From IMG/VR virus record IMGVR_UViG_3300042988_000114, positions 1-62,034 of that record: 62,034 nt of DNA. The stretch is one strand, 5' to 3'. Below the pieces are notes generated by a model. The model did not search any database. It saw only the letters and a list, made by a program, of their open reading frames with translations, and was not told where the DNA came from. Source of the stretch: a virus. Taxonomy: Duplodnaviria > Caudoviricetes. The translations under genes were made by a program, and so were the position numbers. How positions within the stretch are numbered: position 1 is the stretch's first letter; every line of letters begins with the position of its first letter. This document shows positions 6,612 to 23,600 of this stretch, piece by piece.

Positions 6612-7455
6612 GGAGGACTGAGAATACATCTCTCCCAACAACACCTCGAGCATTATTACAAACCTTGCGAGTCTGCTTTCTCTCGACTTCCACTAAACCC
6701 ATATTGCTATGTAGCCTAGTCTGCTGTCAGCATCGCCGTTTTTAAAGCCAGGCAGTAGGCTTGTCGTCACATGCTATTCTATGCTTTCTATCCCGTTGAC
6801 CTTGCGAGCCATTAAGTCTTGCGAACTACGAAACTTCCTGCATAAACAGATTTCACCTTGCGAGTTACGTCTGACTAGATTCACTTGCGTGTCTAGTATT
6901 AGATGCTTTTCACATATGACCGAGTCAGTCTTTGCGTTTTAATGATAGTGAGAATCGAACCCACCGCATTCTGTTTAAGAGACAGATGTTCTACCAATGA
7001 ACTATATCAACCTACTGCGATGTGCTGACTCAGTTGCTGCGTAAAGTTTTGGCTCTACACAATACAACACACCACGTACCTTTCCTCTTGCGGAGTAATC
7101 AGTCGTCTTTCGCGACCAGCGTCTGCATTACTACAGCCACCACCCACTAAAACTGCATACGAGCTCTTAGGTGCAACCCTTCGAACCAATACACTACCCT
7201 TTCTCATACCAATTAACAAAGTTGGTTTCGCATAGAAGTCAGCACCACCTGTTACTTTCCATCTACTCAAGTTCCCCTTGATGCAATCTCAGGCTTGTAA
7301 GCAAACGTTCTTCCCTATGCACTTTGCGTCACTGTTACATCCACCCGTCGCTGAGTGAACGCTCCCTCACAGGAGTGAGCAGGCTTGTCTAAATGAACTA
7401 TTGCTAGCGGAGTTATGTAGGCATACCTCCTTTGGCTGTGTCACCACAGTTATTC
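6612..7455 (-). ncRNA. Probable GOLLD RNA (about 845 nt)
   Basis: No credible ORF; many GCAA tetraloop hairpins (CUCGCAAG near 6664, 6801, 6857); size, phage tRNA-cluster context and internal tRNA match the GOLLD class; boundaries approximate. Confidence 0.72.
6940..7011 (-). tRNA. tRNA-Lys(CTT)-like element inside the putative GOLLD RNA, no CCA
   Basis: Intact D arm, TCTGT-CTCTTAA-ACAGA anticodon arm, GGTTCGATTC T arm; frayed acceptor end. Confidence 0.8.
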
Positions 7456-20872: not shown

Positions 20873-20927
20873 AATGTTCTATTGTTACATACATTTAGAT
20901 ATGTGTCAACAGATATTTTTAAAAATT

Positions 20928-21611: not shown

Positions 21612-21687
21612 TGGTGGAAATAAGAGGGGTTGAACCTCTGACCGTCAACGTATGAAGCTGCTGCTCTACCAACTGAGCTATATTTCC
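21612..21687 (-). tRNA. tRNA-Met(CAT) (elongator Met or Ile2)
   Basis: Cloverleaf, loop TTCATAC, CCA end. Confidence 0.9.
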
Positions 21688-22008
21688 AAATAAAACCCTT
21701 AAGGTTTCCGGCACTGGGCTCGGACATACGATAGAATCAGTATCTATATATGATCGTCATCCTTAAGGTATTCATAAACAAACTAGTGGGACGCTGCCAA
21801 AATTATATAACATATACTGATTCGTCTAGTTTGTTTGTGAATACCCTGTATTTCTACAGGATATGTTAGGGTCGATACCCTAACCAGTTATTTGTACTCT
21901 GCTGTTACCGCCAGCATTTCATCCAACTGTCCGCCCGTTTAAAGATTATTATAGTGTTCTTTCAGGTCCTCGTTACCTGGCCATATAGGTCTTATTAACA
22001 CTGTTAAA

Positions 22009-22167
22009 CTATGCGTAAGTTCGATTCAACTGTTTGCGTTTGTCAAATTCGATTTGAGCACGTTCCAACTTGTCCTGAATCAACTGTTTACGTTGTTCTG
22101 GGGTTAGTTCATTTTCAGTTACAAACCTTACCTCACGCATACGTTTTCTTAAATCAATCTTCTTCAT
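22009..22167 (-). CDS. Small basic helical protein (52 aa)
   Basis: Manual translation MKKIDLRKRMREVRFVTENELTPEQRKQL...; AAGGA RBS. Confidence 0.65.
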   Translation of the reverse strand: MKKIDLRKRMREVRFVTENELTPEQRKQLIQDKLERAQIEFDKRKQLNRTYA

Positions 22168-22180
22168 AATTCCTTTTTAC

Positions 22181-22215
22181 AAAACAAAAAACCCTGGGTG
22201 TTTAGTCCAGGGTTC
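22181..22215 (-). terminator. Intrinsic terminator (putative attenuator) upstream of the tRNA block
   Basis: AACCCTGG-loop-CCAGGGTT followed by a U-rich tract. Confidence 0.8.
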
Positions 22216-22238
22216 TTAAGTTTGTAAGTTACTTGTTA

Positions 22239-22388
22239 TTAACAGTAACCATCTCCCTCTCGAACCCCAATTCCAAATCCCTCTGAACTGCGATCACTTT
22301 TATTAATTGCAATCGTAGACCACAAGGCTGGCATGCCTAGTGTGGGCTGTTGTTGTTTGCAATAATGATTAAAAGTGTTGTTCATCAT
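22239..22388 (-). CDS. Putative leaderless leader peptide (49 aa, all 20 amino acids)
   Basis: ATG 8 nt downstream of the -10 box; double TAA stop 23 nt before the terminator. Confidence 0.6.
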   Translation of the reverse strand: MMNNTFNHYCKQQQPTLGMPALWSTIAINKSDRSSEGFGIGVREGDGYC

Positions 22389-22395
22389 AGTACCT

Positions 22396-22424
22396 ATTGT
22401 ATATTTATTTACCTTTCGTGTCAA
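22396..22424 (-). promoter_or_regulatory. Sigma70 promoter with an embedded TAAATA
   Basis: TTGACA-17-TACAAT. Confidence 0.8.
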
Positions 22425-22463
22425 CCACGAACTGTAATTTATTTACCTTTTTCTTAAATTTAT

Positions 22464-23600
22464 TTATGATCCGAGATCATAAAACTTACTTGACAAGCGT
22501 TTAACGTTAGCATTTCCGGCCCACGTACCCAATTTGTGTTGTTGCGGCAATGTGTTCCAAAGATGCTCTATTCCAACTTTCCACGCATGCTTTGCAGCAT
22601 CGCTATCTGGTAGTTTAAAAAACCACTGATCTCTCGGAGAGTGTATCAGTGACATCGGTTTAACCTGAAAGTCAACTGGTTTCCACCCCGGGTAAACAAT
22701 GCTGTTTAATAGCTCTATTGTAAGCCATTTAACTTTTTTGTCAACCACTGTGCTGTTCATAAAGATTCTTTCTTTATCCTGGCTCAGCCCTTCTGCTTTC
22801 TTTAAAAAGTTTTTAACTGCATGTCCTTGCTTGGTCAGCAACTTAACGCAGCTTGGATCCCAATAAAATAATTCATTGTGATCCCACTCATCATTCTTTG
22901 ATTGTACAGCACTACTTACTGCATTGTCAACCGAGTCTGTGAATTTAAAGTAATAATTTTTTCCAAACCCGTGTACCATTGGTTTTTCGAGCCCGTAAAT
23001 GAATCCTACCCGTTTTCCACTTTCTATTAAACGCATCCAGTGCGGAACTGTTTGTTTAATTACTTGTTTTACTGCCGAGTTAGGGTTAACAAAATTGTTT
23101 AACCCGTATACCCATTCACTTGCGGATTGCTTACTAAAATAATCTACAGTAGGCTGAGCAATGTCAACTAATGTGTGCTGCATCCACGGCTGCTGCTGCT
23201 TTGCTACAGAAACCTTTGGTACCGCTACATTGTAAATCTCACCATTTAACCAATCTTCTTTGCTTCCAGTGGCAGCAAAGTTCACTAGACTTGCACATTC
23301 GTCTAGCCTAATGTTGTTGGTTACGAACGTATGTAGTATGTTGTCTGAGTCGCTACCACCGCTGTACCACAAAACCAAATAATCGTATTTGTCTCGAAGC
23401 TGTTGGGCTCGTTCGCGATACAACTCTTCTAAACTCTCAATTGGTTCCACGGACCAGTCATGCAGCCCGAACTCCACATCATTAAAATGCCAACTAACTT
23501 TTTGATTAGTCCGGATACTAAATTCGATTGCTTCTAGCTTACTGTAGAACTTTACTGACCCTACTAGATAGTACCCAAATTTATCCTGCCTATTATTCAT
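22464..23600 (-). CDS. PP-loop protein, paralog 2
   Basis: LRDKYDYLVLWYSGGSDS, GLEKP, ELFYW. Confidence 0.7.
   Translation of the reverse strand: MNNRQDKFGYYLVGSVKFYSKLEAIEFSIRTNQKVSWHFNDVEFGLHDWSVEPIESLEELYRERAQQLRDKYDYLVLWYSGGSDSDNILHTFVTNNIRLDECASLVNFAATGSKEDWLNGEIYNVAVPKVSVAKQQQPWMQHTLVDIAQPTVDYFSKQSASEWVYGLNNFVNPNSAVKQVIKQTVPHWMRLIESGKRVGFIYGLEKPMVHGFGKNYYFKFTDSVDNAVSSAVQSKNDEWDHNELFYWDPSCVKLLTKQGHAVKNFLKKAEGLSQDKERIFMNSTVVDKKVKWLTIELLNSIVYPGWKPVDFQVKPMSLIHSPRDQWFFKLPDSDAAKHAWKVGIEHLWNTLPQQHKLGTWAGNANVKRLSSKFYDLGS

Follow-up and report, generated by a model that had tools for sequence, protein, structure and literature searches.

A candidate ribosome-mediated attenuator with an all-amino-acid leader at the head of a phage tRNA gene array

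An element of ~245 bp on the minus strand of the viral record IMGVR_UViG_3300042988_000114 (IMG/VR; Caudoviricetes) is probably a ribosome-mediated attenuator through which decoding capacity for all amino acids is signalled to a phage tRNA array. The record was analysed over its whole length of 62 kb (62,034 nt; hereafter the window), and its completeness was judged to be ~18 %. The element comprises a promoter, a leader open reading frame (ORF) of 49 codons and an intrinsic terminator, the 5' arm of which can alternatively pair with a stretch close to the 3' end of the leader ORF. Its carriers form a family of large freshwater phages, with more than 100 distinct variants on viral contigs. An attenuator had been proposed in an initial annotation of the window, according to which ribosome stalling at almost any leader codon would free an antiterminator and switch on the phage tRNA genes. 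At the level of sequence comparison this interpretation is supported, as every comparative test proposed with it (conserved frame, amino-acid diversity and covarying antiterminator in related leaders) came out in its favour. The features of the element are the following, all on the minus strand of the window:

22424-22419, minus strand: -35 hexamer TTGACA, kept in 13/13 relatives found via the neighbouring gene
22401-22396, minus strand: -10 hexamer TACAAT, 7 nt 5' of the ATG; transcript predicted to start with the A of the ATG or an adjacent base
22239..22388, minus strand: leader ORF with ATGATG start at 22388, 49 codons plus TAA (22241-22239)
22294..22377, minus strand: long 5' hairpin of nested helices inside the leader ORF, from the minimum-energy fold of the window
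22262..22270, minus strand: candidate antiterminator 5' strand UUGGGGUUC, codons 40-43, complementary to the terminator 5' arm
22227..22250, minus strand: hairpin across the stop codon, specific to the window's clade
22207..22217, minus strand: terminator 5' arm (AA)GAACCCUGG, common to terminator and antiterminator
22181..22206, minus strand: terminator loop ACUAAACAC, 3' arm CCAGGGUU and T-run

In the hairpin across the stop codon, four changes between the window and the relative L001 keep a hairpin, in a shifted register.

Relatives of the element

The phage collection INPHARED yielded no match (megablast and blastn with 801 nt; tblastn with the 378-aa protein encoded by the neighbouring upstream gene), and three samples of relatives were therefore assembled in addition to loci found via this neighbouring gene. 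The latter (sample 0/1a) encode homologues of the 378-aa protein, 484 of which were detected, and were thus found independently of the promoter pattern. The element is present in 13 of these loci, 10 of them distinct (blastn and nhmmer); in one, the neighbouring protein is only 45 % identical and the element 94 % identical. All 13 keep the promoter, a spacing of 6-7 nt, ATGATG, an open frame of 41-50 codons and the terminator. Likewise kept is a Shine-Dalgarno (SD) site directly after the T-run; the two other frames are closed, and insertions or deletions are multiples of three.

Sample 1 was retrieved with a pattern composed of part of the promoter and ATGATG (92 stretches in viral contigs). 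An nhmmer search over all loci plus the window resulted in 86 matches and 61 distinct variants, 59 of which have a complete ORF. This sample is biased toward promoter, spacing and ATGATG, and unbiased for everything downstream. Sample 2 is based on a pattern from the terminator only (at least 120 stretches, 106 distinct among the matches listed); the leader body was recognised by nhmmer, with the terminator columns excluded, in 64 of the 120 loci listed, providing 48 new peptides. Sample 3 derives from a search with a profile of 54 peptides against 1.84 billion proteins. It contains 58 representatives, nearly all of them stand-alone proteins of 37-62 aa and 46 of them outside samples 1 and 2; some gene calls are N-terminally extended, which slightly inflates their amino-acid counts.

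A word-based protein search with the 49-aa peptide retrieved a single cluster (P0001, 98 % identical), and neither Pfam nor PHROGs contained a match better than chance to the leader peptide, to the 52-aa ORF downstream of the terminator or to the 378-aa protein. In bacterial and archaeal genomes, scanned with the terminator pattern, the leader body was found in only 2 of the 120 matches listed, and therefore no host was assigned. The two are L375 and L272, the latter a 183-kb contig in a metagenome-assembled genome labelled Haliscomenobacter sp.; they may represent phage contigs that were binned into such a genome.

Amino-acid diversity of the leader

The leader ORF (22388-22239, minus strand) reads MMNNTFNHYCKQQQPTLGMPALWSTIAINKSDRSSEGFGIGVREGDGYC. 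A recount of its 49 sense codons confirmed the initial figures exactly: 35 different codons are used for all 20 amino acids, of which 19 have appeared by codon 36. The twentieth is first encountered at V42. The null was taken from 328 long ORFs encoded by the same loci, in the form of random windows. At 44 residues these contain on average 16.9 distinct residues, with P(all 20) = 0.024, and in a 49-residue window of the phage group's own long ORFs all 20 occur with P = 0.043. The original proposal carried the reservation that 20 of 20 amino acids can occur by chance; across the family, the excess is far beyond this expectation.

The 59 peptides of sample 1 contain on average 18.78 distinct residues (null 16.8), with all 20 present in 21/59 (1.33 expected) and at least 19 in 39/59 (7.7 expected). 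For the 45 peptides of sample 2 (up to 53 aa) the mean is 19.33 (null 16.97), with all 20 in 26/45 (1.33 expected) and at least 19 in 36/45 (6.95 expected). The 46 peptides of sample 3 that lie outside samples 1 and 2 (up to 62 aa) have a mean of 19.39, with all 20 in 24 and at least 19 in 42 of them; since the samples consist of related sequences, these counts are not independent trials. Clustering at 60 % identity results in 18 clades, 17 of which reach at least 18 distinct residues and 8 of which hold an all-20 member. Draws from the leaders' own pooled composition have a mean of only 16.77 distinct residues and P(all 20) = 0.017; therefore, each peptide is more even than the composition of the family requires. 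The controls are lower: the neighbouring small ORF downstream of the terminator (52 aa in the window) has on average 14.8 residue types, and 13-16 were counted in ORFs that precede a terminator of this kind but are unrelated to the leader. None of the leaders contains a run of regulatory codons for one amino acid, with 18-20 amino acids being used in 38-53 codons. The amino-acid diversity of the leader, found across 18 clades and well above the null, is conserved and non-random.

Terminator and antiterminator

The intrinsic terminator of the window is located 23 nt after the stop codon, as annotated, and consists of the 5' arm GAACCCTGG (22215-22207), a 9-nt loop (22206-22198), the 3' arm CCAGGGTT (22197-22190) and a T-run to 22181 (hairpin free energy, dG, -16.7 kcal/mol). 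Hairpin and T-run are present in 55/56 variants, with three pairs changed on both sides. RNAalifold applied to the whole alignment returned only the terminator.

The proposed antiterminator segment TTGGGGTTC is located at 22270-22262 (minus strand). When folding was restricted to the transcript as far as the 5' arm, this arm found its partner close to the ORF end in 54/56 variants. The partners track each other by eye (GGGUUC-GAACCC, GGGUCC-GGACCC, GGGUUU-AAACCC, GGGUCU-AGACCC), and clade-specific extensions reach 11-14 bp. In an alignment-free test, every upstream region was paired with every terminator arm. With the 32 distinct arms of sample 1, cognate duplexes have -19.25 kcal/mol versus -14.0 kcal/mol for non-cognate ones, and 0/20,000 permutations were as good; shuffled upstream sequence gave a mean of -9.2 kcal/mol. 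The independent sample 2 (28 arms) showed the same behaviour, with -18.04 kcal/mol for cognate versus -15.01 kcal/mol for non-cognate duplexes and again 0/20,000 permutations. A covariance model was also built, to which 56 matches were aligned, one of them a spurious reverse-strand match. In this model-fitted alignment 75.5 % of the cells pair, compared to at most 58.5 % when slid; 6/11 pairs change on both sides, and 95 double-change cells were counted versus 45.9 +/- 9.7 in shuffles (0/500 reach this value). Since this alignment was fitted to the structure, main reliance is placed on the two alignment-free tests. Pairing of the annotated segment with the terminator 5' arm is borne out by both lines of evidence, and a helix excluding the terminator was recovered without alignment in two samples.

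The 3' end of the antiterminator segment is found at -6 to +26 nt from the stop codon in sample 1 and at -4 to +21 nt (median 10) in sample 2. Judging from these distances, the antiterminator segment would be covered by a ribosome that translates the last leader codons. No signal was obtained for a trp-like 1:2 helix or another helix sequestering the antiterminator (cognate -10.0 versus non-cognate -10.6 kcal/mol; 9,888/10,000 permutations as good). Minimum-energy folding of the full-length RNA places the arm in the antiterminator in 29/55 and in the terminator in 18/55 cases. As no sequestering helix was found, the default is read as read-through, with timely completion of the leader leading to termination. 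The predicted attenuator would accordingly be simpler than the trp design and not a trp-type three-helix switch.

The leader RNA folds better than shuffles (z -3.38). For the 5' hairpin, 60.3 % of the cells pair in alignment A3 versus 31-43 % when slid, with 118 double-change cells versus 69 in shuffles; its pairing is reached by 0/500 shuffles. The structure was derived from the window's own fold and is moderately supported. It may be a pause or synchronising structure, which is a guess.

The same attenuator design might gauge only general ribosome availability or initiation, e.g., after host shut-off, the amino-acid diversity then being a side effect. In the absence of an anti-antiterminator, any failure of translation including initiation would give read-through, and the predicted leaderless 5' AUG in the window's subfamily would make initiation a sensitive step; also, constraints at the nucleotide level are strong. 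However, such a restricted function appears unlikely, considering the excess over the pooled composition (18.78 versus 16.77; P(all 20) = 0.017 per draw) and the recurrence of the diversity in 17/18 clades although rare residues such as Cys sit at differing positions. Moreover, relatives with an SD-led leader display the same diversity.

Frame and coding constraint of the leader

The frame is open from ATGATG in 59/59 complete variants of sample 1 (36-51 codons), as anticipated for a conserved leader, with in-frame insertions and deletions and the other frames closed in the relatives found via the neighbouring gene. Among the matches listed for the terminator pattern, 100/106 distinct loci have an ORF ending just 5' of the terminator. 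Leader length ranges from 31 to 53 codons over the variants. In 54 aligned peptides only M1, M2 and W23 are invariant, and identity to the window peptide decreases down to 13-20 %. The ratio of nonsynonymous to synonymous changes (pN/pS) is 0.50 at a pS of 0.149 (53 close pairs), as compared to 0.23 at a pS of 0.228 for the neighbouring small ORF (10 of the 53 leader pairs usable). Several codons are nearly fixed (His CAT 40/40, Ala GCC 39/40, Tyr TAT 37/39, Asp GAT 30/31). The leader thus appears to be both coding and RNA-constrained, combining an obligatory frame and a loosely constrained peptide with constrained nucleotides; this is the pattern predicted for a regulatory leader, and the ORF is presumably translated.

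The always open frame and the invariant Trp would likewise be accounted for if the ORF were simply an early gene encoding a small phage protein, driven by a strong promoter of its own and followed by a leaky terminator. The recurring motifs AYWS and SDRxPE, the pN/pS below 1, the synonymous variation at conserved Leu, Gly, Arg and Pro, and the almost exclusively stand-alone occurrence among the 58 representatives of the profile search agree with such a gene. In that case, complementarity to the terminator arm would have no regulatory role, which leaves the covariation of the terminator-excluding helix unexplained. Considering in addition the variable length, the low identity, a constraint weaker than that on the neighbouring ORF, the lack of a family in Pfam or PHROGs and of an own promoter for the next gene (see below), this explanation is regarded as quite improbable.

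A nascent peptide arresting the ribosome in the manner of TnaC or SecM, such that a ligand or condition sets the choice between terminator and antiterminator, would explain the invariant Trp, which is followed by a Pro 11-12 residues later in many clades (W23...P35-type; relatives with SDRTPE and the NSIPG clade). This Trp-Pro spacing may resemble that of TnaC. However, the window peptide has SDRSSE and no Pro at this place, and the ITRDISNR clade also lacks it, rendering an arrest peptide very improbable.

Finally, the terminated RNA of ~205 nt could itself be the product, i.e., a stable small RNA acting in trans, possibly with two functions and with incidental read-through. Its strong folding and the constrained synonymous sites (pS 0.149 versus 0.228) would fit, and attenuator-derived small RNAs are known (available text of PMC6614838). 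Neither the open frame and the amino-acid diversity nor a helix competing with its own terminator would be explained thereby. As an alternative to attenuation a small RNA is hardly to be expected, while it is compatible with attenuation as an added role.

Promoter and leaderless initiation

The promoter TTGACA-17 nt-TACAAT described in the initial annotation is present at 22424-22396 (minus strand), matches the consensus at 11/12 positions and is kept in the 13/13 relatives found via the neighbouring gene. The promoter alone proves nothing, because promoter-like matches in the region are no more common than in shuffles (16 versus 16.5). The case against chance rests on the conservation in relatives. 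In the 13/13 independently found relatives the -10 hexamer is separated from the ATG by 6-7 nt. The suggestion of a leaderless leader probably applies to the window's subfamily and not to the family as a whole, many members of which are SD-led. By the patterns used, the 48 new relatives of sample 2 divide into 13 with a promoter at most 11 nt from the ATG, 19 with an SD-like site and 16 with neither; in those with an SD-like site, a leader of 25-35 nt replaces the promoter abutting the ATG. Leaderless initiation would then be a trait of the window's subfamily, and the combination of leader and terminator is general.

The promoter spacer (window 22402-22418) carries a block TAAATAAA just 5' of the -10 hexamer, which is found in all 13 first-found relatives and many others. 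This conserved block suggests a phage-group-specific promoter signature beyond the two hexamers.

Downstream genes and neighbourhood

The following features are located directly downstream of the terminator:

22009..22167, minus strand: 52-aa ORF, first gene under the predicted control, with SD site and ATG within 14 nt of the T-run
21688..22008, minus strand: conserved structured RNA between the small ORF and the first tRNA gene, 64 nhmmer matches
21612..21687, minus strand: tRNA-Met (CAU), first tRNA gene downstream, followed by 29 further tRNA genes on the same strand down to 5064

In sample 1, tRNA genes occur 170-700 nt past the terminator in nearly every locus with enough downstream DNA, in agreement with the original assignment of the element to the head of a tRNA array. 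Ahead of these tRNA genes, 35 loci have a homologue of the 52-aa ORF; the conserved structured RNA occurs there in addition or instead. The minus strand of the window is free of promoter-like sites between 22396 and 20909. The SD site and ATG, or the structured RNA, follow directly after the T-run and thus leave no room for a separate promoter. Hence, an intrinsic terminator lies between the leader and the genes to be regulated, with no promoter in between.

RNA-library contigs from four runs cover parts of the region; they cannot show ends, strand or level of an RNA, those sharing only the 35-nt terminator or the promoter stem from relatives, and uncovered stretches are uninformative. One contig of 325 nt (21951-22275) bridges the terminator and is compatible with read-through RNA, DNA carry-over being possible.

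The window contains 34 tRNA genes, all on the minus strand (5064-25214) and jointly covering all 20 amino acids. Upstream of the attenuator lie four of these genes (Met, Arg-UCU, Leu-UAA and Ile-UAU), which are preceded by a perfect promoter-like site (12/12) at 25035-25007. A GOLLD RNA at 6615-7075 (minus strand; 207 bits versus a gathering score of 150) encloses a tRNA-Lys gene (6940-7011). In the relative L100, a GOLLD RNA is found at 806-1270, upstream of the attenuator, and in L047 a group I intron match (1188-1379; 68 bits versus a gathering score of 50) adjoins tRNA genes, likewise upstream of the attenuator.

The 52-aa ORF belongs to a family of 46-60 aa proteins in 35 loci, sharing the motif LTxEQRxxLIxxKLERAE and representing the first gene past the terminator; a search of the ESM Atlas with it returned only unnamed clusters (scores of at most 0.82). 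The structured RNA of ~320 nt has its core at ~21815-21975 and directly follows the attenuator in relatives devoid of the small ORF. It displays compensatory hairpin changes (e.g., CCUGUA-GAAA-UACAGG versus CCAGCA-GCAA-UGCUGG) and a hairpin with the conserved loop AACGAGG, has no Rfam family at E up to 1, and its 5' part is covered by short RNA-library contigs. The 378-aa protein encoded upstream (22464-23600, minus strand) contains an SGGSDS motif, which presumably resembles that of PP-loop ATP-pyrophosphatases, and has a 48 %-identical paralogue on the window's own contig (P0054). A PDB profile search with its family revealed only chance-level matches (E at least 0.4).

Observations weighing against the attenuator

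Several observations speak against a ribosome-mediated attenuator that senses all amino acids. With respect to the leader, in one clade the leaders have 36 codons and no more than 14-15 different amino acids, and Cys is absent in 24/59 and Val in 13/59 leaders. The pN/pS below 1 together with synonymous variation at conserved Leu, Gly, Arg and Pro points to some selection on the peptide, which could reflect a function of the leader peptide itself.

With respect to the switch, the same terminator including its loop (AYUAAAMAC) also follows an unrelated ORF family (MYQVDG..., 13-16 residue types); therefore, the terminator module is not specific to the attenuator. Loci with this arrangement are L137, L144, L147, L218, L219, L245, L247, L249, L255 and L256. 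In a plain MAFFT alignment only 44.1 % of the cells pair in the window's register, without excess over shuffles, because both sides of the helix are shifted by one column in the window's clade. The majority register lies two columns off (slide -2), and 76.8 % of the cells pair in it on the same alignment. The clean covariation count thus rests on the model-fitted alignment. Furthermore, the antiterminator core of the window's clade ends 21 nt before the stop codon (extended duplex 15 nt), and masking by a ribosome paused at the stop codon is therefore marginal in this clade. Here, masking would need a ribosome on codons 38-46, a weak point of the proposed mechanism. A conserved structure that pairs with the antiterminator and could synchronise ribosome and polymerase was not found.

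With respect to transcription, an RNA-library contig of 220 nt spans 22208-22425 and extends ~35 nt 5' of the ATG. It reflects either a longer transcript or DNA in the library, and counts against a strict start at the ATG. Promoter-like sites at 20909 (10/12) and 19392 (12/12) could feed the rest of the array, such that only part of the tRNA array depends on read-through; a limitation by internal promoters had been foreseen in the initial annotation. The small ORF, the structured RNA, tRNA-Met and tRNA-Phe are likely to depend strictly on read-through; for genes beyond these, such dependence is uncertain.

Proposed mode of action and significance

For the ribosome-mediated attenuator, the following sequence of events can be envisaged. 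The strong sigma-70-type promoter would give rise to an RNA starting at or within a few bases of the leader AUG. During fast translation, a ribosome would have arrived at the end of the leader when the terminator is made; segment 22270-22262 would be covered, the terminator would form and the transcript would end at about 22181. If the ribosome is late, i.e., stalled upstream or never started, the segment would pair with the 5' arm and no terminator would form, and polymerase would continue into the 52-aa ORF, the structured RNA and the tRNA genes. Nearly all amino acids occur once or twice in the leader, and a lack of practically any one charged tRNA would therefore slow the ribosome down. 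Since the phage tRNAs cover all 20 amino acids, the circuit would act as a feedback, poor decoding yielding more and good decoding less phage tRNA. Within this scheme the translation of the ORF, the transcript start, the control of termination by translation and tRNA supply as the signal are predictions, and the condition sensed may be tRNA depletion or the action of tRNA-cleaving nucleases.

One may further speculate, with slightly less than even confidence, that tRNA control is a closed loop in which a leader evolved to hold every amino acid probes the entire decoding capacity of the cell in a single pass, the lack of any one charged tRNA turning on the full tRNA set together with the structured RNA. 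Delay of the ribosome could then be due to starvation, mismatched codon usage, host shut-off or tRNA-cleaving defence nucleases.

To our knowledge, the regulation of phage tRNA genes is largely unknown. Why phages carry tRNAs is debated, and compensation of codon usage, replacement of degraded host tRNAs and escape from anticodon nucleases are considered in the available texts of PMC10264068, PMC11555353 and PMC11464382. If the proposed function holds true, the element would be the first attenuator sensing all amino acids at once, and a viral tRNA array would for the first time have a known regulatory logic. The phage would measure decoding capacity and adjust its tRNA output, and leader-peptide attenuation would be extended from single to global sensing. 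With more than 100 natural variants with covarying helices, compact size and a consensus sigma-70 promoter, the element is suited to reporter testing in E. coli or in cell-free systems, and it could serve as a synthetic sensor of translation stress. A literature search revealed no attenuator or leader ORF preceding the tRNA array of a phage; most subscription journals were outside the coverage of this search, and an earlier description is possible.

Comparison with known systems

The leader-peptide attenuators of enterobacterial amino-acid biosynthetic operons are represented by trpL, hisL, thrL, leuL, pheL and ilvL. The phage element resembles them in the succession of a short leader ORF, an intrinsic terminator and the regulated genes. 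It also shares an antiterminator that uses the terminator 5' arm and has its other strand at the leader end, such that a ribosome finishing the leader would favour termination. In contrast to these attenuators, the phage leader has no codon run for a single amino acid and samples nearly all 20, no 1:2 helix was detected, the genes under predicted control are phage tRNAs, a small ORF and a structured RNA, and the window's subfamily is predicted to be leaderless. The element has no match to an Rfam leader family: Rfam gave no match over it in the window, and the sole match in eight relatives was to Thr_leader in one of them, far below threshold (25.4 bits versus a gathering score of 55; E 0.6).

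T-box riboswitches bind one uncharged tRNA directly and need no translation. They have in common with the scheme proposed for the phage element the choice between terminator and antiterminator as a report on the charging state of tRNA. A T-box match was found neither in the window nor in the eight relatives searched (Rfam).

Mycobacterial leaderless short ORFs rich in Cys (polycysteine) sense Cys and act on translation, according to the available text of Canestrari et al. (bioRxiv 10.1101/834739). Similar to the function proposed for the phage leader, a leaderless 5' short ORF acts there as a ribosome-based sensor for an operon, whereas the predicted switch of the phage element is a transcription terminator and its leader is maximally diverse.

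The L-array of Anabaena sp. PCC 7120, a horizontally mobile tRNA array, is upregulated when translation is impaired (Santamaria-Gomez et al., PMC8421152, available text) and thereby shares the physiological logic proposed here for the phage array. Its regulation differs in acting via the promoter: its -10 box and transcription start are overlapped by direct repeats, which are interpreted as repressor sites, and the available text of PMC8421152 contains none of the words attenuat-, leader and terminator.

While the design of a leader-peptide attenuator as such is known, what appears to be new in the phage element is a leader that samples all amino acids, in combination with the lack of regulatory codon runs and of a 1:2 helix.

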